From the NCBI RefSeq assembly GCF_988242995.1, contig NZ_OZ547043.1: DNA of 64,000 nucleotides; one strand, given 5' to 3'. This document shows, in pieces, positions 33,316 to 64,000 of the stretch. The translations under genes were made by a program, and so were the position numbers. How positions within the stretch are numbered: position 1 is the first letter of the stretch; every line of letters begins with the position of its first letter. A model generated the notes under the pieces. The model was not told the origin of the DNA and made no database searches. It saw only the letters and a program-made list of their open reading frames with translations.

Positions 33316-34488
33316 TTAAGCCGTTTCAAACGTTCCTTTCACGCAGGCTTTGCCGTCTTTGACCATCAGTTTGCCGCGAGCGTATACCTGCTCAATGCGC
33401 AGTTCTGGCGTCATGACCAGCAAGTCAGCATCATTGCCTGGCAGAATTTCGCCTTTCCCGGTCAGGTTAAGGAAACCGGCTACGCTACTGGTGAGCGGGC
33501 GCAGGGCATCGCTGATACTGAAATCATAGTCTTTGACCAGCACCTGCACGGTTTCCAGCAACGTTTCAAAACCGGCAACACCGATATGGGTTAAATTCCC
33601 TTCGTCATCGAAGAACGGCTGGCTACCGTTGCCGTCGGAGCTGAGGGTGACGCGTGCCAGCGGAATACCCGCCTGAACGGCGCGGGCAATACCTTCGGCA
33701 GGGGCGACCGGTTCGTCAATGCTGCTGGTGATATCGATGGTGCCGCCTTTGCGCGCGAACTCCAGCGCCTGCTCAAACAACGGTACGTTGCGGTTAACGT
33801 GGGTCGGCAGCAGCTTGCTGATCGGCACATCGCAGTTTTCCAGCAGGTCATAAATAGGCTGTAACGCCTTTTTACTGTCGCCCATGTGGAACACGGTGAC
33901 GCCAGGTTTACCGCCGAGCAAACCGCCAACGCGGGATTCTGCCGCCATATTGGCCAGGCGATAAACGTCCGGTGCGGCAGAACGGTGATCAGAGATGGCG
34001 CATTTCACGCCAATCACACGATCGATAATCGCCACGTCTTTTTCCACGGAACCCGTAATGGTGCGGGAAGGGACATGATAAGCGCCGGTCAGCATCCAGG
34101 CGCTGATGCCTTCTTCATTGAGCGCACGGGTCTTGGCGAGCAGGGATTCCGGGTGGCGAGAGATAGAGTCGGTGCCCAGCAGACCAACCACTGACGTGAC
34201 GCCCGCTTCCGTCAGGCGACTTAGCGCCACTTCCGGCGTGCGCGTCGTGGGACCTGCTTCGCCGCCACCGCCAATCAAATGGACGTGTTGATCAATAAAA
34301 CCTGGGCAGAGGATCTGCCCACTGAGATCGACAACCGTGCAGTTCGGTACAATGTCAGAAGGGATATTGCTGGCAACGGCGATAATTTTGCCGTTAGCGA
34401 CGAGGACATCGCAAATTCCCCGATCTTCCGGCGCATACAAATGCGCTCCCTGCAGCAGGGTAAAACCGGCTGCGGTATAATCAATCAT
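33316..34488 (-). CDS. iadA: isoaspartyl dipeptidase (amidohydrolase superfamily)
   Basis: 390-aa ORF with metal-binding HxH near the N-terminus (DQHVHLIGG). Confidence 0.9.
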   Translation of the reverse strand: MIDYTAAGFTLLQGAHLYAPEDRGICDVLVANGKIIAVASNIPSDIVPNCTVVDLSGQILCPGFIDQHVHLIGGGGEAGPTTRTPEVALSRLTEAGVTSVVGLLGTDSISRHPESLLAKTRALNEEGISAWMLTGAYHVPSRTITGSVEKDVAIIDRVIGVKCAISDHRSAAPDVYRLANMAAESRVGGLLGGKPGVTVFHMGDSKKALQPIYDLLENCDVPISKLLPTHVNRNVPLFEQALEFARKGGTIDITSSIDEPVAPAEGIARAVQAGIPLARVTLSSDGNGSQPFFDDEGNLTHIGVAGFETLLETVQVLVKDYDFSISDALRPLTSSVAGFLNLTGKGEILPGNDADLLVMTPELRIEQVYARGKLMVKDGKACVKGTFETA

Positions 34489-47320: not shown

Positions 47321-50300
47321 ATGTTGTGGGGTTTTGTTTTTGTATCTTTTATCTCTAAGGAGCTTGCTTTGGGTCAATCAGAATACATTTCATGGGTAAA
47401 ATGTACTTCCTGGCTAAGTAACTTTGTGAATCTTAGAGGGTTGAGACAACCGGATGGACGTCCTCTTTATGAATATCATGCAACCAATGCTGAATATAAC
47501 CAATTAACGCAGCTACTCTGTGCTGTTGGTCAATCACAATCTAATATATGTAATAGAGACTTTGCTGCCTGTTTTGTTCTTTTTTGCTCTGAGTGGTACC
47601 GCAGGGATTATGAACGGCAATGCGGATGGACGTGGGACCCTATATATAAAAAAATAGGGATTTCATTCACCGCCACAGAGCTTGGTACTATCGTACCGAA
47701 AGGGATGGAAGATTACTGGCTGCGCCCAATTCGATTTTATGAATCTGAACGACGTAATTTTCTCGGAACATTATTCAGTGAAGGTGGTTTACCTTTCCGG
47801 CTACTCAAAGAATCAGACAGTCGCTTTCTGGCTGTTTTCTCCAGGATCCTTGGACAATATGAGCAAGCAAAGCAGTCAGGTTTTTCTGCCCTTTCGCTGG
47901 CAAGAGCTGTCATAGAAAAATCAGCGCTGCCAACTGTTTTTAGCGAAGATACCTCTGTAGAACTTATCAGTCATATGGCTGATAACCTCAATTCCTTAGT
48001 ACTTACTCACAACCTAACAAATCACAAAGAACCAGTACAACAGCTTGATAAGGTTCACCCTACCTGGCGAAGCGAGTTTCCAATACCGTTAGATGATGAA
48101 ACAGGAACGCATTTTTTGAATGGACTGCTATGCGCAGCCTCTGTAGAGGCTAAGCCTCGACTACAAAAAAATAAGAGTACGCGTTGCCAATTCTATTGGT
48201 CAGAAAAGCATCCAGATGAGCTTAGGGTGATAGTATCTCTTCCTGACGAAGTTTCCTTTCCTGTAACTAGCGAGCCGTCAACTACGCGCTTTGAACTTGC
48301 CATTTATGAAGATGGTGAGGAAGTCTCTGGCCTTGGGCCAGCCTATGCTTCCCTGGAAAACAGACAGGCAACAGTTCGATTACGTAAAAGCGAAGTGAGA
48401 TTTGTCAGGCAAAATCCATCTGCAGGTTTGTCGTTAGTGGCTCGTGCTGGAGGGATGATTGTTGGGAGCATTAAACTTGATGACAGTGAAATTGCCATTG
48501 GTGAGGTGCCGTTAACCTTCATCGTTGATGCAGATCAATGGCTGTTACAGGGACAGGCCTCCTGCAGTGTGCGAAGCAGCGATGTTCTGATTGTGCTCCC
48601 TCGGGACAATAGCACTGTTGCTGGTTTTGATGGCCAATCGAGTGCAGTAAACGTATTAGGACTTAAAGCGCTACCTGTTAAGGGATGTCAGGACGTTACA
48701 GTTACAGCAAATGAAACTTATCGGATTCGCACCGGAAGAGAACAAATCAGCATCGGAAGGTTTGCTCTAAATGGAAAGCGTGCAAGCTGGGTTTGTCATC
48801 CAGATGAGACATTTATTGGTGTACCAAAAGTCATTTCTACACTACCAGATATTCAAAGCATTGATGTAACGCGTTACCTGAGCGGAATTTCAATTGAGCA
48901 ATGTCATATACAAGAGATGCTAGGGGCTCAATATCTTTCTATCCGTAATAGTAATAATGAAACGCTCTTGCGTCGCAAAATCGGTATCTTGCCTGCTGAT
49001 TTCAGTATTGAGATAAAAGGTGGAATGCACGCAAATGAAGGCACTATCGTAATCACCACACAGCATCCTTGTGTAGCAACACTTAAAGATAAAACATTGG
49101 AGGCTACACGTAAGCGTACTGAGGGGCGAACAGAGATACAACTCAAAGCGGAAGGGGTACCTCCGGCATTTATTACATTACAAGTTCTGCCTAATTTGGC
49201 GGCTGATACCATCGACATTGAGTTACCTTTCCCAGCTAAAGGCTGCCTTGCTCTTGATGTAAACGGACGTCCTCTGGATAAAAACATTACGCTGCATGAT
49301 CTGCTGGGTTCCAGAGCATTCCTGTTCTCCAGAAATGGTGAGCCGACAAAATATACATTGCAGTTGCATTTGCGCTCCATTAGTGGATTACAGGCATGGC
49401 ACGAATGGAGTTATACGGCATTGAGCGAGCGTCCTGTTGAATTGAATCTCTATAGTCTACGTGAACACATTGAAAATCTGATTTCACTTGAGGCAGGTAT
49501 TGATCAGGTTGTTGAGATGCGTATTACGGGGGCGGGTGTGGTCATGGCCTGGCAAATTCGTCGCTATAAATACAGCCTGCGCTATGATTATGAAAAAGAA
49601 CTATTACTCAGCCAGTCAGTGAACCATCGTGCTGGACAGATTCCTTCCCCCGTTATCATGCTGTTAAGTGAACCCGAGAGGAAATCCATTCCCTTAGCAT
49701 CAAGAATGAGCGAGGGAGTGCCTGTCGGTGAATATGAGTTGAGCTCAATCGTTAACAAAAACGGACCATGGTTGGTTGTTCCTAAACCGGGTGAAGAGAT
49801 GGCTTTTCGCCCCTGCTTCATTCGTGGCGAATCTTCGTTACCGGTAGAAGAAAGCAACATCCGCTCATTGCAGAAAGCGACCCAGCTTTTTAATCCACAG
49901 GCAGAAGTTAATACCATCACACGGGTTCTCGGACAGATGGCTAACGATCCTGCCCATTCCGGCTGGCAATTTATGCGTAGCCTGTACGATCAATTTGGTT
50001 ATTTACCGCTGGCAACCTTTGAAGTATGGCGTGCACTAGTGCAGCATCCGCAGGCATTGGCGATGTCGCTCTTCAAATTCGAAATGTCAGCAGAGTATCT
50101 GAGTCGTATTGAGAATGAGTTCCCTATTTTATGGGAGTTTTTCCCCATCTTTGAGATCAAAGCTGCATCTGAGCGTTTCAAATTGTTCCTGAGCCAAAAA
50201 GGTGCACCGGAGGAAACCCAGAAATTACTGGTTACCAATATGTTTCAACGGCTGGGGCTCGTGTTCCCGACATATGCCGATGAAATTGAGAAATGGTTAA

Positions 50301-50659
50301 GTAATGGATATCTCCCCCCGTCTATTCCTGAATCTTGTGTCCACGGGTGGTATCAGGAGCTCTTACGTGAGCACAGTGAAGCTCGCTGGCCTGAATACGG
50401 CTGCAAGCGTCTGTATAAATGGATGATGTCACAAAAAAATCCAGTGATTGGTATTAATCCTGACGCAAATCACCGCTATTCCGTGGCCTGGTTACCCGTC
50501 TTCGCCGCAGCGGTGGCAAGCGGAAATGCTTCTTTTGAATCTGTATTTGACCGTAAACCCGGTGCCGTATTTTTCCTGAGGCAAGTCAGGGATTTCGATT
50601 CCCGCTGGTTTAAGGCCATCTTCCAGTTCAGCCTGTTGCGTTATGTTGCTAAAAAATAA
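47321..50659 (+). CDS. large protein (1112 aa) of unknown function, first gene of candidate defence operon
   Basis: Uninterrupted 3.3-kb ORF. No nucleotide-binding or nuclease motif recognised by eye. An in-frame TTG at 47369 preceded by AAGGAG may be the true start. Stop lies 12 nt before the helicase gene. Confidence 0.8.
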   Translation: MLWGFVFVSFISKELALGQSEYISWVKCTSWLSNFVNLRGLRQPDGRPLYEYHATNAEYNQLTQLLCAVGQSQSNICNRDFAACFVLFCSEWYRRDYERQCGWTWDPIYKKIGISFTATELGTIVPKGMEDYWLRPIRFYESERRNFLGTLFSEGGLPFRLLKESDSRFLAVFSRILGQYEQAKQSGFSALSLARAVIEKSALPTVFSEDTSVELISHMADNLNSLVLTHNLTNHKEPVQQLDKVHPTWRSEFPIPLDDETGTHFLNGLLCAASVEAKPRLQKNKSTRCQFYWSEKHPDELRVIVSLPDEVSFPVTSEPSTTRFELAIYEDGEEVSGLGPAYASLENRQATVRLRKSEVRFVRQNPSAGLSLVARAGGMIVGSIKLDDSEIAIGEVPLTFIVDADQWLLQGQASCSVRSSDVLIVLPRDNSTVAGFDGQSSAVNVLGLKALPVKGCQDVTVTANETYRIRTGREQISIGRFALNGKRASWVCHPDETFIGVPKVISTLPDIQSIDVTRYLSGISIEQCHIQEMLGAQYLSIRNSNNETLLRRKIGILPADFSIEIKGGMHANEGTIVITTQHPCVATLKDKTLEATRKRTEGRTEIQLKAEGVPPAFITLQVLPNLAADTIDIELPFPAKGCLALDVNGRPLDKNITLHDLLGSRAFLFSRNGEPTKYTLQLHLRSISGLQAWHEWSYTALSERPVELNLYSLREHIENLISLEAGIDQVVEMRITGAGVVMAWQIRRYKYSLRYDYEKELLLSQSVNHRAGQIPSPVIMLLSEPERKSIPLASRMSEGVPVGEYELSSIVNKNGPWLVVPKPGEEMAFRPCFIRGESSLPVEESNIRSLQKATQLFNPQAEVNTITRVLGQMANDPAHSGWQFMRSLYDQFGYLPLATFEVWRALVQHPQALAMSLFKFEMSAEYLSRIENEFPILWEFFPIFEIKAASERFKLFLSQKGAPEETQKLLVTNMFQRLGLVFPTYADEIEKWLSNGYLPPSIPESCVHGWYQELLREHSEARWPEYGCKRLYKWMMSQKNPVIGINPDANHRYSVAWLPVFAAAVASGNASFESVFDRKPGAVFFLRQVRDFDSRWFKAIFQFSLLRYVAKK

Positions 50660-50671
50660 AAAGGAATAAGG

Positions 50672-53600
50672 ATGACTACACGCTATTTTTCGTCACTTAT
50701 TGAACAATCGTTGTCTCGTTCAACTGAAGCAACGCTCAGTATCATGGGCGTTACAAACCCGCAGTTGCGTGAACATCTCGCGCAGCAAATGGGGGCTGAT
50801 TGTGGGAAACCGGGCTCATTCCTTGCTTCTCCGGTATTCCAGCAAATGTTTGGCTGGAAGGAGTCAAACCACACGATGCGCAGTCTGACGGAAGGCAACG
50901 CATTGTTGAGCAAAGCAGTGGTTGATTCACTGGATGATCAGAGTAATGGCCGGTACCGATTTGGTGCTGACTGGAAGCCTTTTACACACCAGTTAGCCAG
51001 TTGGAAAGCTTTGCTGGAAAAGAAACATTCAGTGGTGGTAACCAGTGGTACGGGTTCAGGTAAAACGGAATGTTTTATGGTACCGGTGCTGGAAGATCTT
51101 TACCGGGAACTGCATGAAAATGGCAACAATCCGTTGGTCGGTGTCCGAGCCCTTTTTCTCTATCCATTGAACGCCTTGATTAATTCACAGCGCGAGCGTC
51201 TGGATGCCTGGACGCGTGGTTTTGGTACTGGGATCCGCTACTGCTTGTATAACGGAAATACAGAAGAGCTCCACGCAAAAATGAAAACAGTGCAGGATAA
51301 TAGACCAAATGAAGTCTTATCCCGTGAAAAGATGCGTCTGGAGCCAGCCCCGATTCTGGTGACCAACGGCACGATGCTGGAATATATGATGGTTCGCCAG
51401 GTCGACGCCCCGATTATCCAGCAATCCAAAGCACAAAAATCACTACGCTGGATTGTACTGGATGAAGCGCATACCTATGTCGGGTCGCAGGCCGCTGAAC
51501 TGGCACTCCAGCTGCGTCGTGTGATGACAGCGTTTGGCGTGACGCCAGATGATGTGCGCTTTGTAGCGACCTCTGCGACCATTGCCTGCAGCGACGCCGA
51601 AAAGCAGCTGAAAAAATTTCTCTCTGAATTATCCGGTATCCCGCAGGAGCGCATCGATGTTCTGGACGGAAGTCGGGTGATTCCTGAACTGGAACCATCC
51701 AAAAACGTTTCTGTTCCGTTAGACGAAATAGAGCAAATACCTGATCTGGATCTAAAAGATAAAAATGATAATAAAATTAAAGGGATAAGCCCTGAGCGCT
51801 TTTATGCGCTTACGCACTCCCCCGAAGCGCGTTACATACGTGAAATGTTGGTTAGCCAACCCAATCCAATGAAACTGGATGAGATGACGCAGCGGTTAAA
51901 TGCGCTGACAAAACAGCATTACAGCCAGCAGGAAGTACTGCGTTGGATCGATGTCTGTTCAGGGACTCAACCTAATGCAAAGGATCCCGCATTTCTTAAA
52001 GTCAGGGCGCATATCTTCCAGCGTAATACCCAAGGAATATGGGCTTGTGTTGATAAAGATTGCAGATTAAAGCACGGTACACCGCTCGAAAAAGGCTGGC
52101 CCTTTGGCTATGTGTATGTGAACCAGCGACAAAATTGTGACTGTGGAAGCCCTGTATACGAAGTTGCATTCTGTAATGATTGTAATGAGCCTCATCTTCT
52201 GGCGCAGGACAAAAAGGGCAAACTTGTCCAATGGGAAAATAAAGGTGGCGATGAGTTCTCCTTGCAGGATGAAGTACCTGTTGAACATGACACTACAGAG
52301 GAAAAAGTCGAAAAAGAGAACGGTTTCCTGCCTCCGTTGATTATTGCCGCAGGAGAGACCAGCGAGACAGGCTATACCCTACAACGCCTCGACCACCAGA
52401 CGCGCCGTATTGGCGTTATTAACAATGACAGCATTCCGCTGATTATTAATGATGTTGAACAGGTTTGTAGCGCCAGTGGCTGTGGCTACAGAGGCATGAG
52501 TGGGAAACAGCCCTTCCGGCGTGCACTATTAGGTGGGCCATTTTACGTTACTAATATCGTGCCCACCGTTCTTGAGTATTGTCAGGACTTTACCAGTGAT
52601 GAAGGCAAAGAGGGCGTCGGACCAGATTCGTTGCCAGGGCGAGGACGTCGACTCATTACCTTTACGGACAGTCGACAAGGTACAGCTCGAATGGCGGTGC
52701 GTATGCAGCAAGAAGCAGAACGCAGTCTCTTACGCGGAAGCGTAGTCGAAATTCTGAGCTGGCATCAACGGACGCAAACGTCCACGGCGCCGAATGCCAA
52801 TGCCGATCTGGAAAAATTAGCGGCCAGGGCAAAGCAAGCCCGTGAGCAGGCAGAAGAATATCGAAGCTGGGGAATGCCAGACCAGGCGAAATTGTCACAA
52901 GCACAGGCTGAACAGCTTGAACAGGCTTATCAGGCTGCAACCGGTGGAAAAGCAGCAACTACCCTGGTATCCCGCACCTGGACAGAAATGGTTAACGAGC
53001 TTAAAGATAAAGCCGATATCCGTGGCCCGGTACTGAAATATAACCACTATTTGCAGCCTGAAGTGTTTAATAAAAACGGCGGGCCACTAAAGCTTTCGGA
53101 AATGTTGTTGTTCCGGGAATTCATGCGTCGCCCTAAACGGACTAACAGCCTGGAAACACAGGGGCTGGTTCAGGTTGGTTACCAGGGGCTGGAGAAAATA
53201 CATAAGAGCCCCTTGCACTGGCAGGAAAAAGGATTAACGCTGGATGACTGGCGCGATTTTCTCAAGGTTACGTTGGATCTTTATGTTCGCGAAAGCAACT
53301 TCACACAGCTGGATGATGAGCTGAAAAACTGGATTGGTAGCCGTTTTTCATCAAAATTCGTCCGTAACCCGGAATCAAAAGATCCTGAAGATAATCAGAA
53401 CAGACGCTGGCCTCAAATTCGTAATGGCAACGTATCCCATCGTTTAGCGAAGTTACTGATGCTGGGGGCTGGATTCAAAACCGTCAATACGGCGACTATT
53501 GATATTATCAATACATGGCTGAAAGAAGCATGGGCCCAACTTACCGGACCACTTGCAGTACTGAAACCCGATGGCAACCGTTTTTATTTACCGAAAGAGC

Positions 53601-56600
53601 ATATGACTTTTTCTTTAATCACGGATGCCTGGATTTGCCCGGTAACCAATAAAATCCTGGATACGGCTTTTAAAGGCTTAACCCCTTATCTGCCCACCCA
53701 TATTTCGTTCGAGCATCTTACCCAGGCGCAATATGACACTTTTGTCGCGCAGAAAGTCACCATGCCGGAAATCTGGAAGCTGGATCGTTCACAGGAAGAC
53801 TACGCAGAGGGTCTGGCAAAAGCACGAGACTGGGTCAACAATGATCCGCTGATCGCACAATTGCGGTCGGAAAACGTCTGGACAGACATCAACGATCGTG
53901 TAGTGGAAGGCGGTTTCTACTATCGCACTGCCGAGCACTCTGCCCAGCAGTCGTCAGAACGCCTGCAAAGCTATGAAAAGATGTTCAAGAACGGGCAACT
54001 AAATGTTCTCAACTGTTCCACCACCATGGAAATGGGGGTTGATATTGGGGGCATTACTGCGGTGGTAATGAACAACGTTCCGCCACATCCGGCCAACTAT
54101 TTACAGCGCGCCGGGCGAGCCGGGCGTAGTAAAGAATCACGCGCGATCTCTTATACCCTATGCAAAGGTAACCCACACGACCAGCAGGTTTTTGCCAACC
54201 CACTCTGGCCATTTGAAACCATGATCCCGGCACCCATGGTCGCGATGAACTCCGCCCGACTGGTGCAACGTCACGTCAATGCATTATTACTGTCTGACTT
54301 TTTATGTAACGTTATTGGCGAAACCGATAAAGAGAAAACCAGCCTCGATAGCCTCTGGTTTTTCGGTGAAGATGACGGGCAGTCAAAATGCGAACGCTTT
54401 AAAGTCTGGCTGGAACGCCCGGTTCTTGATATCGACATGGCGCTGGAACGGCTGGTGAAAGGTACGGCGTTGCATGGCGCAAGAGCCGAACATCTGCGGG
54501 ATAAAACAATCAATGCGATCACCTTCCTGCAACAGCGGTGGCTCTCCGTTTATCGCGATCTCGTGACCCAGGAGCGTGAGTCGCAGCCGCAAACGCCTTA
54601 TCGTAAGCGCATAGAGCTGGAGAAGAAACGGCACTGTGGCGAGTATCTGCTGCGCGATCTGGCTGCCAGAACCTTCCTGCCGGGATACGGTTTCCCGACA
54701 GATGTAGTGACGTTTGATAACTTCACGATGGAAGATTATATCCGCGAAAAATCGCAGAAAAGTCGTGATAAAAAGGACCGTGAAGATAACGTCTCCCGTT
54801 ATAAAGGATTACCTTCCCGTAACCTCGGTGTTGCCATTCGTGAATATGCACCGGGAGCAGAGATCATTCTTGATGGTCGTGTCTTCCGCTCTGCCGGTGT
54901 CTCACTGCACTGGCACAACATTAATGCTGATACCAATGAAGCCCAGCGTCTGGATTGCGCCTGGCGCTGTCACAAATGCGGGACCATTGGCTATGAAGAG
55001 GGGATGAGCAGTTCCGGGATGCTCTTTTGCTCCAACAGCGCCTGCGGCGAAAAAATAACCATGGATAATCGCCGTCAGGTGTTGCAGCCTGCCGGGTTTG
55101 TCACCGATGCACACGCTCCGGTAACGAACAATATTGAAACCATGAAATTCGTCCCGGTTGTCCCCGCGTGGGTCTTTGTTAAAGCAGAGCCTGTACCGTT
55201 GCCTAACCCGCTAATGGGTTATATGGCTTCTGGGGCTGATGGGCATGTTTTCCAGCAAAGTTTGGGGGAAGGTGGACACGGTTATGCATTGTGTCTGAGC
55301 TGTGGCCGTGCGGAGTCGATGCTGAATGAAAATGATGCACCGAAAAGTATGGAAGCTCACTATCCACCGCGTCCGGGTAAAGCGGACCGCGACAGCCAGA
55401 ATCATCGTCTGATTTGCCCCGGTTCGACGGCACTCATGAAGAACGTCACCCTGGGCGCACTGGCGCGCACCGATGTCTTTGAAATGGTTCTGCGCAAACC
55501 GCAAAACGGCGAGTATCTGCCAGATAACACAGAAGAGGGGCGGATTGTCGCTATGACTCTGGCGGTTGCTCTGCGTCAGGCGCTGGCAGGCGTTCTGGGT
55601 ATCTCCGCCGCAGAACTCGGCTATTCTGTACGTCCGGTCAGACTGGAGGATGGGCAATCGGTATTAGCCGTTCAGCTTTATGATGTGATCAGCGGTGGTG
55701 CTGGTTTTGCCTCCAGCGCACCGGTACATATTGAAGCTATATTGCAGGGAATGGTGAAACAGTTAGGCTGCCGCCATTGTGATACTGCATGCAGTGAATG
55801 TCTGCTTGATTCCCAGACTCGCCACGATCACGATTTGCTGGATCGCAAAGTGGCGCTGGCTTGGCTTGGCGATGACTTCACGTATTACATCGGTTTACCG
55901 GATGAAGAGACATTCTCGCTGCCGGATGCCCGCTACTGCCCTGGCGCTATTGGCGATACGATTCGCCGGGCGATTAACGAAGGCGCTGAAAAGCTCACCC
56001 TGTGGATGACTGGCGCGCCCAATGAGTGGGATTTATACGGCCGTCAGTTCCGCGCGGCTATTCAGAGCTATCGGCTAAAAGACAACGTCGAGGTCGATCT
56101 TGTTATTCCTGCGGGAGTGGATGACCCAGACCTGTTGCATGAACTATCGCAATTTACTGCGCTGGGTGTGCGGTTGTGCCATGTTGAGCAGGAGCTGCAA
56201 TTACCGATTGTTGCCCAGGTCACCTTTGCCGATCGCGTGATGACGCTGGCCTCTCGCAGTCAGCAGGCAACGATTCCGGGGCCGGAGTGGCACCTGAATG
56301 ACGAACTGGTGGTGCGTAGTCTCGGTTATCAAACGGTAGAACTGAACGAGTTTATTCTGCCCGCTAAAGCCGCCAACGCTGTCGAGCGGGTCAAAGACAT
56401 TCAGATCCACAAACAGTTGAATGGACCACTTTCGCAGTTTGGGCAACGCTTCTGGGACGTGCTGTTTAACGACCATGAAGAAGCGCAGTCACTGATGAAA
56501 AACACGCGAATTACCGGCGTTCACTATACCGATCGCTATCTGCAAAACCCGGTTGCGCTGGCGTTGTTGGGATCAATTCTGAAACCGCTAAAAACAAAGC

Positions 56601-57016
56601 TGACCGATGGCGCTGAAGTGGCGCTGGATACGCTGTTTAAAGATAAAGATCGCCCCGGTAACCGGCCTTTCCATGACTGGATGAGCATAGCGGATTTTCA
56701 GGATTTCGCTGATCAGTGGTTTGCTGCTGCGCTGGGCAGGCCGATAGAACTGACGGTGTTCGATTCGCCGCGCGATATCCCTCACCATCGTAAACTGACG
56801 GTGACTTTTGAGGATGGTCAGGTATTGAAGATCCGCTTCGATCAGGGGATGGGCTACTGGCGCATCAACTTTGCATCGCAATGGCATTACTTTGATTTCC
56901 GCGATGACGTTTCTTTCCAGTTAGTCAAAATGGCTCAGGCCTGCAAGGAAGGGAATGTGGCCAACAGCGAAGAGAGCTGGGCAACGGATGTGCTGGTGGA
57001 GGTGATCGCCTCCTGA
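50672..57016 (+). CDS. giant SF2 (DEAH-type) helicase, 2114 aa, with Cys-rich zinc-ribbon clusters (DUF1998/MrfA-like); DruE-like candidate
   Basis: Walker [11 protein letters not shown] (51041-51070); DEAH box VLDEAH (51455-51472); FVATSAT; motif [10 protein letters not shown] (54104-54127); Cys clusters at 52046-52183, 54956-55045, 55292-55303 and 55769-55801; AAGGA RBS before the ATG. Confidence 0.85.
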
Positions 57017-57072: not shown

Positions 57073-58119
57073 TTATTTGAGATATTCATCGAAAATGGCG
57101 AGTAATTCTTGATGTATACACGGCCATTCCTGACCTAAATTGACGGTACACAGGCCAATATCGAAGCCATTAATTTTATAACGATGTTTCACTGCGGTGT
57201 CTACGTGGGGGTATATTAATAAACCCCCTATGTTTTCGCCATTTTCAGGTTTTAACGACCATAAGTAATTCATCAGTTGATAAAGATTTTGAGAGTGAAA
57301 TTTTTCTGAGCCCATTCGTCGTGAAAAAATGCTCTTATAGTATTTGGCGTCAACGATAAGTATTTTTTCTGATGAGCGAATGGTGATGTCAGTTTCCATT
57401 CGAGGTAACAAATTAAGTGACTGATCCGATATGCTCGATGCATCCCATTTTAAATAAGAGCGGGTTGTATTTGCAGACGTTAATTCACGGCGGCAAAATT
57501 CAAAAAGAAACTTTTGATAAAGTAATGACATCTCTTTTTCGTTTCTTTCAAAATCATAGAAACGGTAGTGTCCTTTGTTTTGACCTGGGATAGAATTATT
57601 GACGATGAACTTACAGACGCTGATAACAAATTTATAATAACGCGTGTTCTTTCCGCCATTCAGATAGCTGAAATGCTGCGGAGTTAAATGAAGAGTGCTA
57701 ATGCCCGGTAATTTTCTATAAAGTGAACGAGCTTCATCTCTGATGGTTGAGTTTAACTTTTCATGCTTAATTAACATGGCTAATGTGCTTTTTATAATTC
57801 GGTTAGCCAGCGTATCTTCATTAAGCAGATCAAAAGTACTGACGGTTTTCCCATGATTAAGATGGAAGCCGCGTATTGTTTTAGCAAACTCTATTCGCCC
57901 TTTGATGCCAGGAATGATCTCGGTATTAGGATTGTAATCAAGCTCAAGCCCTCGGCGTGAAAGCTGTAAAACCCCTTTATTTAATACATACCCCAGGATA
58001 TCAAGAAGATTGTTACCGGGAATGGCTTCAAGGTCGGCCTGCTTAATTTCCTGTAAATAACCCCATGCATAGGTAAGCATGTAATAGATATTACGGACAG
58101 GTATCACGGGCTGTTCCAC
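57073..58119 (-). CDS. mcrC: McrBC restriction endonuclease, nuclease subunit
   Basis: 348-aa ORF whose start overlaps the mcrB stop; recognised as McrC. Confidence 0.9.
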   Translation of the reverse strand: MEQPVIPVRNIYYMLTYAWGYLQEIKQADLEAIPGNNLLDILGYVLNKGVLQLSRRGLELDYNPNTEIIPGIKGRIEFAKTIRGFHLNHGKTVSTFDLLNEDTLANRIIKSTLAMLIKHEKLNSTIRDEARSLYRKLPGISTLHLTPQHFSYLNGGKNTRYYKFVISVCKFIVNNSIPGQNKGHYRFYDFERNEKEMSLLYQKFLFEFCRRELTSANTTRSYLKWDASSISDQSLNLLPRMETDITIRSSEKILIVDAKYYKSIFSRRMGSEKFHSQNLYQLMNYLWSLKPENGENIGGLLIYPHVDTAVKHRYKINGFDIGLCTVNLGQEWPCIHQELLAIFDEYLK

Positions 58120-59498
58120 TATGAGTCACCTAATAATTTGTCGGCCCATATCTGTTGTTTATAGGGGTCATCAAAGAAATATTCTTCGAGTAAAGGGGCG
58201 ATATCCGTCATCACAATTTCCTTAAGCCATTGCGTATCAGGAGAGGTGCCATCTTCCAACCCGGAGCAGAAGTAACTATGCCCAATGCGGAATCCTTTCC
58301 CAAGGATAGTGGCCTCTTTGCTGATTTCCTGGTTTAACTCATTCATTTTTTGGCATAAAGACTCAACAAATGAAGGTTCTGCTTTTTTATTCAGTAAAAA
58401 ATTACGGAACTGTGGTGTATCAAAACCAGGCTCAATATCTATGAAAGAAAATCGTCTGCGCAGGGCATAATCAACAACGGCCAGAGAGCGATCGGCAGTA
58501 TTCATTAAACCGATAATATAAACATTCTCCGGGACATAGAATCGTTCTTCATCGTTTTCGGAATAGGTTAAGGGAACAGACCAGTTTTCACCTCGTTTAT
58601 CATGTTCCATTAACATCATCACTTCGCCAAATACTTTACTGAGATTGGCACGATTGATTTCATCTATAATAAAAACATACTTTTTCTCTGGCTGCTCTTT
58701 AGCTTGCTGACAAAAATTGTAAAATATGCCGTCTTTACGTCGGAAGCCGACGCCATTCGGACGATAGCCCTGTATAAAATCCTCATAGCTATAAGATTGA
58801 TGGAACTGAACCATATTGACGCGTTGCGGAGCCTTTTCTCCTGTCAGCAGGTAAGCCAGACGGCGTGCAACAAAGGTTTTTCCAACGCCGGGCGGCCCCT
58901 GGAGGATAATATTTTTTTTGATGGTTAATCGTTTGAGTATCGTCTCTATCGTGGTTTCAGGGATAAACAAATCATTTAACGCATCTTCCAGACAGTATGA
59001 TTCAGTTTTTGACATAGGTGGAATAACACTCTTGCCAGAATTAAATATTAATTTATAGTCGTTGATTATGTTGTCCAGCATGGAGGCAAACCGGGTATAA
59101 TCAAGACCCTGTGAGACTTTTTGGGAACAGGCGTAATAGGACTGTCCGTATTTTTTAGGATAAACACCTGAAGTTGTCTGGAAATACTCTGCGATTGTTT
59201 TAGGTATGTCTGAAGAGAACTGCCATTGGGCATGTGGTTTATTCGTGTCGCTTATACCATAAGCCAAAACCAACTCATCAAAATCTTTATAATAGAGAAT
59301 AACGGGATATATACCGTTAGAAACTTCCTGACCTTCTCCCAGAAATGCAAACCAGGGAATAGATGTAAAATTGCCATAACCGAAACTCACTTTTACTCGC
59401 AGGTTACGGTAAGACGTTGGATAATCTTTGGTGGATTGTGAACTTTTTTGCTGTGCTTGCTCAATAAATTTTTCAATCCAGGCTTGAATTGATTCCAT
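58119..59498 (-). CDS. mcrB: McrBC 5-methylcytosine-specific restriction enzyme, GTPase/DNA-binding subunit
   Basis: AAA+ Walker A GPPGVGKT and Walker B FIIDEINRAN; start placed at MESIQAWIEKF for about 459 aa (ORF track begins 6 codons earlier). Confidence 0.9.
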   Translation of the reverse strand: MESIQAWIEKFIEQAQQKSSQSTKDYPTSYRNLRVKVSFGYGNFTSIPWFAFLGEGQEVSNGIYPVILYYKDFDELVLAYGISDTNKPHAQWQFSSDIPKTIAEYFQTTSGVYPKKYGQSYYACSQKVSQGLDYTRFASMLDNIINDYKLIFNSGKSVIPPMSKTESYCLEDALNDLFIPETTIETILKRLTIKKNIILQGPPGVGKTFVARRLAYLLTGEKAPQRVNMVQFHQSYSYEDFIQGYRPNGVGFRRKDGIFYNFCQQAKEQPEKKYVFIIDEINRANLSKVFGEVMMLMEHDKRGENWSVPLTYSENDEERFYVPENVYIIGLMNTADRSLAVVDYALRRRFSFIDIEPGFDTPQFRNFLLNKKAEPSFVESLCQKMNELNQEISKEATILGKGFRIGHSYFCSGLEDGTSPDTQWLKEIVMTDIAPLLEEYFFDDPYKQQIWADKLLGDS

Positions 59499-59659
59499 AA
59501 GATGTGCCTTCCTCATTGCTAAGCCTCTATTATCGCTTTCGCAACGTACTGAAACAATAGATTTTTACTGCAAAAGGTGGTGGGTAAATATTTACTGAGG
59601 GGGAAAGTTTCTATTGAGTCAGTGGAAGGCTCCCGGTGGTTAACCGGGAGTAAACGCTG

Positions 59660-60001
59660 TTACGCGACTTTCTGTTTACCGGCAATCACTCCAATAAACG
59701 CCTGCACCTGCTTTTGTTTACGTGCCGACAGCTTGCACACCTGGCGCAGCGACTGCATCAGTTCGCTCTCTTCGACGGCGAGTGGTTGGGCGGTGAGGAC
59801 AATACAGCCTTCCATCACTTTGACATCTACCGCCGTGCCGGTGGTAAAACCGGCGGCTTCCAGCCACTGACCTTTCAGGGTGATGGCGGGAATACGGCTG
59901 TAATCCGGGTAGCGACTCGCATAACTCACGGTTAATTGACGGTTATTTGCCGGGGAGACTTCTGCTTCGAACGGTTGTGCAATAGAATGCATGTCAGTCA
60001 T
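59660..60001 (-). CDS. symE: SOS-induced toxin SymE (AbrB-fold RNA endonuclease-like)
   Basis: 113-aa [55 protein letters not shown]...; upstream LexA box. Confidence 0.85.
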
Positions 60002-60072
60002 GATTACTATTCCTTAGAAATAGGGATTGTGATTAGCGGTGCGGGTGTGTTGGCGCACATCCGCACCGCGCT
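59996..60072 (+). ncRNA. symR: cis-antisense sRNA SymR (antitoxin RNA of symE), approximate
   Basis: Plus-strand TAGAAT -10 at 59983-59988 inside the symE 5' codons; GC-rich hairpin at 60036-60069 would end a roughly 77-nt transcript antisense to the symE RBS and start codon. Boundaries inferred. Confidence 0.35.
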
Positions 60073-60228: not shown

Positions 60229-61653
60229 TCAGAACTTTTTACGCGAGGCTTTTTTACCCCCGCTGGCTGCGCGCTCAGCTTTGATTTTCTCCAGCAACGC
60301 AGCGGCGCTGTTTTCTCCGCTGATTAAATCCGGGTTTTCGGCCCGCCACTGGGCGGTGAGTTCACCACGGAACGCTTTTGCCAGGATGGATTGCGTCAGG
60401 TTGTTGACGCGGGCTAAGGCGTTGTTGACCTGTTTTTCTATGGAGTCGGCGTAGGCGAAGAGTTGCTCGACGCGGCGAACGATTTCGTGTTGTTCTTCTA
60501 TAGACGGTAAAGGGACAAATGCATTTTTAAGATCTTTTAAATTTAATGTCTTTCTGGCGACCTCCTTAGATGACTGAACTAGCCATGTTTGCATAACTGG
60601 TGAACTTAACCATATATGGAGAAACATAGGAACAATAATCTTATATTCAGGAGATATTCTGGCAACGGCACGAGCGATATTAACATTTATATCTTCTCTA
60701 ACAATACCTATTCTACCTATAGCCCCAACAATTGTTACAAGAATGTCATTCTTTCGTACTTTGGAACGCTTATATTGTAAATCTATTTCCTTTGAAATTT
60801 TACGAAGATGATTTAAATCTACTTCACCATCGTTAATATCACAAACACGAATTAATTCTATACCGTCTTTTATATCATCTCCAGGTTGCACCACACCATA
60901 ACATAATGGTCTTTGTGTATTGATAATGTTATTCAAAATTGTTTCACTCCAGTCTTCTGGAATAAGGATTTTGTAGTTATCTAATTCAACTTTTTTTGTT
61001 ATAAAATCTTTATCTTCTTTGGTCAACCTACCAGTTACTGCCGCAGCCAACACCGCCTGACGAAAACGTTTCAGGATTTGTGGGATTTGCTCAAGGCGTG
61101 CTTTGGTGCTGTCTACCTGCGCCAGCAGCGTATCGAGTTTTTCAGCGATGATTTTTTGCTCGGCAAGTGGTGGCAACGGAAGTAGGGTATCTTGAAGTGT
61201 CCTGGAAGAAAGATGCTTTACAGTAACCGAGGACGTATTTGCATTGATTGCGGATAAATATCCTGGTAAGGCGTGATAGAAAAACCTTTTATTGTATTTG
61301 TCTTCCTGAACTTCAATTTTACATACTCGTTGATTTAACAGAGCTGGTTCTGAGCACCATATAGTTGCATTAAAATCACCATCCATTCCCACGATTAAGT
61401 CTTCGGGATATACCCAATATCCCTCAGGAATTTGACCCGAGTAATAAGTCGATGTATTACCTTTTAGAACATCACGAATTCTAATTAATGGTACACCATC
61501 TTTACGATTATTAAATTCTGACGACTTAAAAGCAAAACCGTTTGTGATGTTTGCTACGGAATCCATTGAAATACGTAACCAGCTATCATGGATTGAAAGT
61601 AACCCATTGATATTTTGCTCAATTAATTCTTTTGATGTTGAGTTGAAACTCAT
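60229..61653 (-). CDS. hsdS: type I restriction-modification specificity subunit
   Basis: 474-aa ORF with two variable target-recognition regions separated by a conserved central repeat (LPPLAEQKIIAEKLDTLLAQVDSTKARLEQIPQILKRFRQAVL) and a similar C-terminal repeat (LPSIEEQHEIVRRVEQLFAYADSIEKQVNN); 4-nt overlap with hsdM. Confidence 0.9.
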   Translation of the reverse strand: MSFNSTSKELIEQNINGLLSIHDSWLRISMDSVANITNGFAFKSSEFNNRKDGVPLIRIRDVLKGNTSTYYSGQIPEGYWVYPEDLIVGMDGDFNATIWCSEPALLNQRVCKIEVQEDKYNKRFFYHALPGYLSAINANTSSVTVKHLSSRTLQDTLLPLPPLAEQKIIAEKLDTLLAQVDSTKARLEQIPQILKRFRQAVLAAAVTGRLTKEDKDFITKKVELDNYKILIPEDWSETILNNIINTQRPLCYGVVQPGDDIKDGIELIRVCDINDGEVDLNHLRKISKEIDLQYKRSKVRKNDILVTIVGAIGRIGIVREDINVNIARAVARISPEYKIIVPMFLHIWLSSPVMQTWLVQSSKEVARKTLNLKDLKNAFVPLPSIEEQHEIVRRVEQLFAYADSIEKQVNNALARVNNLTQSILAKAFRGELTAQWRAENPDLISGENSAAALLEKIKAERAASGGKKASRKKF

Positions 61654-63239
61654 TCCTTCACCCCACCAAACGCTTCTTCCAGCAACTGACGCTGTGCATC
61701 CGCCTCATCGCTCGCTCCCAGTTCACGTATCAGCGCATCCAGTTCGCCCAGCGCCTGTACCAGCTCGCCCATCGCTTCTGCCGCTAATACATCCGGCTCC
61801 GGCAGGTTGTCGGCATCAATGCTATCTTTATCTTTCAGCCAGGAGATATCCAGCGAATCGGATTTCGTGGTGCGGATCCACTCGCGGGTGAACTTACGCC
61901 AGCGGCTGGTAGCCAGGTGCTGGTCGGTGTTTTTGTTCTCTTCGCTGTCGGCAACTTCCGTCTCTTCGGCGTTAAAACTCCATTCCCCTTCGCTACGCGG
62001 GCTTAAACCGTGCGGATCTTCGCCATACACGCGCTCAAACGGCTGCAGATGCTCGTCGGTAAACGGCGTGCGTTTGCCGAAGCTCGGCATATTGGTACGC
62101 AGGTCGTACACCCACACATCATCGGTACAGTTCTTATCCTGATGCGGGTTCGCCACCGTCCCTTTGGTAAAGAACAGCACGTTCGCCTTCACGCCCTGCG
62201 CGTAAAAAATACCGGTCGGCAGACGCAGAATAGTGTGCAGATGACACTTATCCATCAGGTCACGACGGATGTCCGTGCCTTTGCCGCCTTCAAACAGCAC
62301 GTTATCCGGCACCACCACCGCCGCACGACCGCCGGGGTGCAGTGTTTCGATAATATGCTGCATAAAGCACAATTGTTTGTTGCTGGTCGGGTGAACAAAG
62401 GTACGGGTAATGTTGGTGCCTGCGGCGCTACCAAACGGCGGGTTAGTGGCGACAATATGCGCCTTCGGCAGGTTTTCACCGTCGCTACCCAGGGTGTTGC
62501 CCAGACGGATTGCGCCACCGTGGTCGAGGTTGCCTTCGATATCGTGCAGCAGGCAGTTCATTAGCGCCAGACGACGGGTGCCGGGTACCAGTTCGAGGCC
62601 GATAAACGCGCGGTGGATCTGGAAATCCTGCGTGTCGCCATCAAGGTCGTCCAGATCGTTAGTCTGCGACTTAACGTAGCGGTCAGCTTCAATCAAAAAG
62701 CCCGCTGTACCTGCTGCCGGGTCCTGCACCACTTCACGCGGCTGCGGTTTCAGCAGATGAATAATGGTTTTAATCAGCGGACGTGGGGTGAAGTACTGGC
62801 CCGCGCCAGACTTGGTTTCGTTGGCGTTTTTCTGCAACAGCCCTTCGTACATATCGCCGAAGTCATCGCGTGACTTACCGTGCGCGCCGTTGTACCAGTC
62901 CAGTGAATCCATATTGCTGACCAGTTCGGTCAACTGTTTCGGCTGGGTAATGGTGGTGTTGACGTTCTGGAACACCGCCTGCACCAGCTTTTGATTGTCG
63001 GCGCCCAGATGCACCAGCAGGTTACGGTAGAACTGCAACTGCTCCTGGCCGATGCGGGATTTCAGGTCATCCCAGCGGTAGCCTTCCGGCAGGTATTCCG
63101 CTTCCTGTCCGGTTTCTTTACACATTTTCAAAAACAGCAGCGAGGCGAGTTCATTGACGTAGTTTTGATAGGAAACGCCGCCATCGCGCAGGTTGTCGCA
63201 CAGTTTCCACAGCTTCGCGACCAGATCGTTATTGTTCAT
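61650..63239 (-). CDS. hsdM: type I restriction-modification N6-adenine DNA methyltransferase subunit
   Basis: 529-aa ORF with the catalytic NPPF motif (IVATNPPFGSAAG) and SAM-binding region. Confidence 0.95.
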   Translation of the reverse strand: MNNNDLVAKLWKLCDNLRDGGVSYQNYVNELASLLFLKMCKETGQEAEYLPEGYRWDDLKSRIGQEQLQFYRNLLVHLGADNQKLVQAVFQNVNTTITQPKQLTELVSNMDSLDWYNGAHGKSRDDFGDMYEGLLQKNANETKSGAGQYFTPRPLIKTIIHLLKPQPREVVQDPAAGTAGFLIEADRYVKSQTNDLDDLDGDTQDFQIHRAFIGLELVPGTRRLALMNCLLHDIEGNLDHGGAIRLGNTLGSDGENLPKAHIVATNPPFGSAAGTNITRTFVHPTSNKQLCFMQHIIETLHPGGRAAVVVPDNVLFEGGKGTDIRRDLMDKCHLHTILRLPTGIFYAQGVKANVLFFTKGTVANPHQDKNCTDDVWVYDLRTNMPSFGKRTPFTDEHLQPFERVYGEDPHGLSPRSEGEWSFNAEETEVADSEENKNTDQHLATSRWRKFTREWIRTTKSDSLDISWLKDKDSIDADNLPEPDVLAAEAMGELVQALGELDALIRELGASDEADAQRQLLEEAFGGVKE

Positions 63240-63439: not shown

Positions 63440-64000
63440 TCAGGCCAGCTCGTCCCAAATGTAATCGCTGAATTTATCGAGCAGGTTGTCGAGATTATCG
63501 TCAAAGGTTCTTTGCAGCATCGCCTTCCCGCCGCGACGGTGGAAGTTGCCGGTTTTGAAGACATCGTCGTCGAGCACCACTTTCTCTTTCAGCGCCTGCG
63601 CTAAACGATCGAGCCAGCTTAATTGCTCGCTGCTCCAGTCATTTTCGCCCTTAATGCGCGTCAGCGCGTGATCGACACGTTCCTCAAACGGTTTCAGCGC
63701 ATCGCCCACCGCAGCGCGGCGAATATGTCCAATCAGCCGGGCGGCGATATCTTCATTGCGCGTCTCTTGCCATGCTTTGCGCAGGGAAGATTCCTCAAAG
63801 TGCTGGCGGTCAAACCACTCCTGTAGCTCGACCAGCCCTTTACGGGTGAGATCGCGCGGGCGATTAATCACCGCCTGCAATGCCGGCTGTGCATTCGGGG
63901 AACGTTGCACCAGCGAGTCAAAGGCTTCGAGGAAATCCTGCGGCGTGTCGTAATCACCGTACAGCGATTTTACGCTCACCACTTCATCGTCGATATCGAG
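63440..64000 (-). CDS. hsdR: type I restriction enzyme R subunit, C-terminal 187 codons only (gene continues beyond window)
   Basis: Minus-strand ORF ending ...DYIWDELA with stop at 63440; position upstream of hsdM as in hsdRMS operons. Confidence 0.85.
   Translation of the reverse strand, partial: LDIDDEVVSVKSLYGDYDTPQDFLEAFDSLVQRSPNAQPALQAVINRPRDLTRKGLVELQEWFDRQHFEESSLRKAWQETRNEDIAARLIGHIRRAAVGDALKPFEERVDHALTRIKGENDWSSEQLSWLDRLAQALKEKVVLDDDVFKTGNFHRRGGKAMLQRTFDDNLDNLLDKFSDYIWDELA

Follow-up and report, generated by a model that had tools for sequence, protein, structure and literature searches.

[quoted passage not shown]

The window analyzed here, a stretch of 64,000 nucleotides, carries on its minus strand an intact specificity gene that is almost certainly the wild-type hsdS of EcoBI, the Type IA restriction-modification (R-M) system of E. 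coli B, placed in the hsdR-hsdM-hsdS operon that is usual in the immigration control region. EcoBI is a founder Type IA enzyme, and no restriction enzymes were characterized before it and EcoKI. Its hsdS is a long-known textbook allele, and no novelty is claimed for it. Nothing was found in the sequence that runs counter to this assignment.

Results

The hsdS gene and its domain organization

Translation of the minus strand between positions 60229 and 61653 gives an uninterrupted open reading frame (ORF) of 474 codons, with its stop codon inside the interval; the plus strand of the same interval is riddled with stops. These are exactly the bounds at which a prior sequence-only reading of this DNA had placed hsdS, to which the strand, absent there, can now be added, and the protein start quoted in it, MSFNSTSKELIEQNINGLLSIHDSWLRISMDSVANITNGFAFK, is indeed the N terminus of the translated minus-strand product. 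[quoted passage not shown]

Positions 60229..61653, minus strand: hsdS, assigned as the EcoBI specificity subunit, 474 aa, intact (ORF, Pfam, DNA identity, and protein name).
Positions 61180..61653, minus strand: target-recognition domain 1 (TRD1), residues 1–158 including a 22-residue N-terminal leader; 19% identity to EcoKI TRD1.
Positions 61015..61179, minus strand: central conserved region, residues 159–213, with the first dimerization helix (D1); 85.5% identity to EcoKI, gapless.
Positions 60508..61014, minus strand: TRD2, residues 214–382; 24% identity to EcoKI TRD2.
Positions 60229..60507, minus strand: C-terminal conserved region, residues 383–474 plus the stop codon, with the second dimerization helix (D2) and tail; 93.5% identity to EcoKI.

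The Pfam family Methylase_S (PF01420) is recognized in two stretches of the protein (E = 7e-34), which thus has the two tandem TRDs of this type expected of a Type I HsdS, and the PADLOC model Specificity_I matches it with E = 1e-204. Among solved structures, EcoKI HsdS (model 2Y7C) matches best, with E = 3e-88; the HsdS crystal structures 1YF2, 3OKG, and 5YBB come next. The Methylase_S and Specificity_I matches, together with dozens of complete genomes in which an annotated hsdS has 100% DNA identity to the ORF, exclude a chance ORF, and the interval holds a real hsdS gene.

Identity to the EcoBI allele and its distribution

When the gene was compared by megablast with 5426 complete E. coli genomes, it proved 100% identical, over 1425 of 1425 nucleotides, to that of strain B, ATCC 11303, and several B derivatives, with no difference from E. 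coli B HsdS in either TRD of the encoded protein. The same 1425-nucleotide sequence is present, again at 100%, in many natural isolates of human, pig, cattle, poultry, and water origin. The protein, looked up as an exact sequence, occurs on more than 1000 contigs, its source name being "Type I restriction enzyme EcoBI specificity subunit". At a coverage of at least 80%, the full-length allele occurs in 101 of the 5426 complete genomes (~2%), from varied hosts, a frequency with which the earlier finding of EcoBI isoschizomers among clinical E. coli (PMC2490747) is in agreement.

The partner genes and the integrity of the operon

Upstream of hsdS on the same strand lie the genes of the two other subunits, the second of them seen in part.

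Positions 61650..63239, minus strand: hsdM, Type IA methyltransferase subunit, 529 aa, intact; 96% identity to K-12 HsdM, PADLOC MTase_I E = 1e-230.
Positions 63440..64000, minus strand: 3' end of hsdR, last 186 codons; the frame is open to the window edge, and the remainder of the gene lies beyond it.

The identity of HsdM to its K-12 counterpart extends over 529 of 529 residues. The stop codon of hsdM and the start codon of hsdS overlap by 4 bp (ATGA), which indicates that the two genes are translationally coupled, as they are in K-12. The locus is syntenic with mcrCB-symE-hsdSMR of K-12, and the closest complete genomes (99.9% identical over 24 kb) have the gene order yjiT-helicase-mcrC-mcrB-symE-hsdS-hsdM-hsdR-mrr, as in the window, with a full-length hsdR of 3513 nucleotides at the same position. 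As judged from the window, the methyltransferase half of the system (M2S1) is intact, and the strain would be restriction-proficient provided that hsdR, covered by the window over its 3' 186 codons, is complete.

The sequence could be that of EcoBI and the system still lack restriction activity, modification activity, or both, as in laboratory r-m- derivatives of B, in which case the predicted barrier would be absent. Most of hsdR is outside the window, and the B lineage loses the system easily, as is seen from the IS1 element inserted in hsdS near codon 238 in the BL21 lineage and from the T219I change of REL606. In the window, however, hsdS is uninterrupted and free of the REL606 substitution, hsdM is intact, and the hsdR frame is open throughout the part that is present, while the closest complete genomes have hsdR in its full length. 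We therefore regard an inactive system as very unlikely and retain the reading of the locus as wild-type EcoBI.

Separate searches with the two target-recognition domains

In principle, the gene could combine one EcoBI TRD with that of another allele and so have a new or hybrid specificity toward an uncharacterized target. Such combinations occur: in separate TRD searches of the 5426 genomes, seven complete genomes were found to have a TRD1 ~97% identical to that of EcoBI at the nucleotide level, paired with a TRD2 other than the EcoBI one. One of them is the natural hybrid hsdS of E. coli 2013C-4282 (NZ_CP027579.1, L003:2501-3889; WP_072004068.1, 462 aa). Yet when TRD1 and TRD2 of the window gene were each searched alone, both were 100% identical to E. 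coli B, TRD1 being found in 114 of the 5426 genomes at an identity of at least 95% and TRD2 in 107. Together with the identity of the entire gene over 1425 nucleotides, these searches rule out a novel combination of TRDs, to which we attach hardly any probability, and leave the assignment to EcoBI as it stands.

A partial copy was observed in E. coli CEA106S, where the first 97 nucleotides of the allele, and these only, are present at 100% identity (NZ_CP166722.1, 4884439-4884535), under a feature annotated hsdM. This suggests that in CEA106S hsdS may have been truncated or replaced downstream of hsdM.

Comparison with the HsdS subunit of EcoKI

The window protein was aligned with EcoKI HsdS of K-12 MG1655 (NP_418768, 464 aa; L001:10069-11463, minus strand). 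The two conserved regions align without a single gap, with identities of 85.5% (residues 159–213) and 93.5% (residues 383–474), which bears out the proposal of the sequence-only reading that the protein is built on the IA-family HsdS framework. The variable regions are of another kind, with identities of 19.1% for TRD1 (residues 23–158) and 24.3% for TRD2 (residues 214–382). The N-terminal leader comprises residues 1–22, about 15 of which have no EcoKI equivalent. At the DNA level, K-12-type genomes cover just 29% of the gene in the megablast search of the 5426 complete genomes, corresponding to the conserved parts. The order TRD1-CR1-TRD2-CR2 (CR, conserved region) and the family-specific conserved regions are those of Type IA, as are the partners, HsdM and the part of HsdR that is seen, and the arrangement hsdR-hsdM-hsdS in the immigration control region.

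The N-terminal variable region had been put forward as different from that of EcoKI, and the alignment agrees; the second variable region, unflagged at the time, differs as well. Identity to EcoKI across both TRDs, the outcome that would have overturned the proposal, is clearly absent. With only 19–24% identity in either TRD, the recognition sequence is expected to differ from that of K-12 in both half-sites, as had been suggested for the sequence as a whole. The further suggestion of a methylome unlike that of K-12 is well supported, since hsdM and hsdS are intact; a restriction barrier unlike that of K-12 would follow on the condition of a complete hsdR, since most of this gene is beyond the window end and its 3' part alone is seen.

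A reading of the gene as the K-12 allele, or as a trivial variant thereof that the sequence-only reading took for a different one, has next to no likelihood and is ruled out by the EcoKI alignment: the central and C-terminal conserved regions are 85–94% identical to EcoKI and K-12 has the same neighboring genes, but TRD1 and TRD2 align at 19% and 24% with many gaps, and what K-12 genomes match of the DNA (29%) is confined to the conserved parts.

The surrounding defense island and the source background

The EcoBI operon is adjoined by other defense genes. The genes mcrC (348 aa) and mcrB (positions 57073-59516, minus strand) are both intact, with a one-base overlap; an in-frame ATG further upstream lengthens the mcrB ORF to 465 aa, versus 459 aa in the annotation of relatives. 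The K-12 arrangement is also seen between mcrB and hsdS, where symE (59660-60001, minus strand, 113 aa) and the SymR antisense RNA antitoxin (59996-60072, plus strand; Rfam RF01809, 93 bits) are located.

Upstream of mcrC, two large plus-strand genes give full-length matches to components of Druantia type III: a 1112-aa ORF (47321-50659) to DruH, with 1830 bits, and a 2114-aa DEAD/DEAH helicase (50672-57016) to DruE, with 2693 bits. They are named yjiT and "DEAD/DEAH box helicase" in RefSeq. At this locus K-12 has only a 505-aa YjiT and a yjiV pseudogene, so this strain keeps an intact Druantia III system that was lost from K-12. With mcrBC, Druantia III, and EcoBI side by side, the immigration control region is a dense defense island.

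For positions 40000-64000, no identical 24-kb stretch was found among the complete RefSeq E. coli genomes. This segment is matched best, at 99.9% identity and with a 6-bp length difference, by natural isolates of cattle, pig, dog, and human origin. Since the best matches are natural isolates and none is identical, the host of the EcoBI allele is here probably a wild isolate and not a laboratory B strain.

Frequency of EcoBI sites

A pattern search of the window for the EcoBI recognition sequence TGA(N8)TGCT returned three predicted sites.

Positions 62904..62918, plus strand: predicted EcoBI site, inside hsdM.
Positions 33419-33433, minus strand: predicted EcoBI site.
Positions 49853-49867, minus strand: predicted EcoBI site.

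Shuffles gave an expectation of 8.85 sites, and the same half-sites at spacers of the same codon phase occur 10–14 times (~11.5). The site survey covered the window and loci L004-L022. Independent sequence from strain B and K-12, 700 kb in all, shows the dip again, with 92 sites versus 123–143 at same-phase spacers (mean 135.5, ratio 0.68), the EcoBI word being about 30% rarer. Within this sample, K-12 regions orthologous to strain B regions have site counts on a par with the latter (18 versus 20), which means that the dip does not depend on the presence of EcoBI. Words other than the EcoBI site are similarly scarce, with ratios of 0.64 for GGA-N8-TGCT, 0.76 for GA-N8-TGCT, and 0.68 for TGA-N8-AGCT; TGC-, TGG-, and TGT-N8-TGCT are free of it, with ratios of 1.1–1.2. 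In a permutation control on the window alone the EcoBI site was unremarkable, ranking 17 of 72. Depletion of the EcoKI site was looked for, and none was found.

The equal counts in K-12 and B, the dips of neighboring words, and the permutation rank in the window all argue against restriction avoidance of the EcoBI site. The deficit looks like a general periodicity of coding sequences, with no bearing on the system of this strain; it may have its source in an Asp or Glu codon followed, three to four codons on, by a hydrophobic xTG-CTx pair. A small extra deficit specific to the exact EcoBI site, such as EcoBI-type systems circulating within the species might leave through prolonged selection, seems quite improbable.

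Discussion

The recognition sequence of EcoBI, TGA(N8)TGCT, has been known from the late 1970s (PMC3874165 Table 1). EcoBI is listed as a Type IA enzyme with a methylation interval of 8, and EcoKI, with the target AAC(N6)GTGC, has the same interval of 8 (PMC3874165 Table 1; PMC12707154 Table 1; PMC2490747). The family was originally defined by subunit complementation and antibody cross-reactivity with EcoKI, both of which have been reported for EcoBI (PMC3874165, PMC12707154). From the literature on the identical protein we infer that the window HsdS targets TGA(N8)TGCT. The S subunits of Type IA enzymes are ordered S1-D1-S2-D2, and in Salmonella IA hybrids the 5' half-site followed the N-terminal TRD and the 3' half-site the second TRD (PMC3874165). 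By analogy with these hybrid experiments, TRD1 would read the 5' half-site TGA and TRD2 the 3' half-site TGCT.

In the proposed mechanism, which takes the activity of the window system from published work on the identical protein, the helices of the two conserved regions would serve as a scaffold that binds a pair of HsdM subunits and sets the spacing of the TRDs; each TRD would read one half of the bipartite target, in this allele TGA(N8)TGCT. The M2S1 enzyme would then N6-methylate one adenine in each half-site, the two adenines being 8 bp apart, at the same interval as in EcoKI. Because this interval is constant, near-identical conserved regions can serve both the N8 and the N6 spacer. With a full HsdR, R2M2S1 would translocate and cut DNA bearing unmethylated sites.

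The Type I methylation and, if hsdR is intact, the restriction barrier to be expected of this strain are those of E. coli B and not of K-12. DNA grown in K-12, with its TGA(N8)TGCT sites unprotected, would be restricted in this strain if HsdR is full-length, and DNA from this strain, with unprotected AAC(N6)GTGC sites, would be restricted in K-12 r+ hosts. Such a barrier bears on transformation and phage plating; the value of the assignment is practical, and the science is not new.

Comparison with known systems

An intact gene, its domain layout, a sequence identical to that of the E. coli B allele, and an hsdM that is both intact and coupled are direct observations, against which the known systems can be set. 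With EcoBI of E. coli B, the window locus shares the gene (identical at 1425 of 1425 nucleotides, with no differences), the protein name, the operon, and the chromosomal position.

Two departures from the wild-type allele are found within the B lineage. In BL21, BL21(DE3), C41, BLR, and related strains, the EcoBI allele is split by an IS1 insertion near codon 238, whereas the window gene is uninterrupted. REL606 (L016:562-1986) has the EcoBI allele with one nucleotide change, C656T, which gives T219I at the start of TRD2 and is absent from the window gene.

The HsdS of 2013C-4282 resembles EcoBI in TRD1, which at ~97% nucleotide identity has few amino acid changes, and in having the same conserved regions, but its TRD2 is unrelated to that of EcoBI and its length is 462 aa. 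Its target is presumably TGA joined to a different 3' half-site. By its sequence, a hybrid of this type exemplifies, in natural strains, the domain shuffling described for Type IA enzymes, and it indicates that the TRDs are modular in nature.

EcoKI HsdS has in common with the window protein the order TRD1-CR1-TRD2-CR2, conserved regions 85.5% and 93.5% identical, an HsdM partner 96% identical, the locus, and the 8-bp interval between the methylated adenines. It differs in both TRDs (19% and 24% identity), in its target, AAC(N6)GTGC versus TGA(N8)TGCT, and at the N terminus, which is longer by about 15 residues in the window protein.
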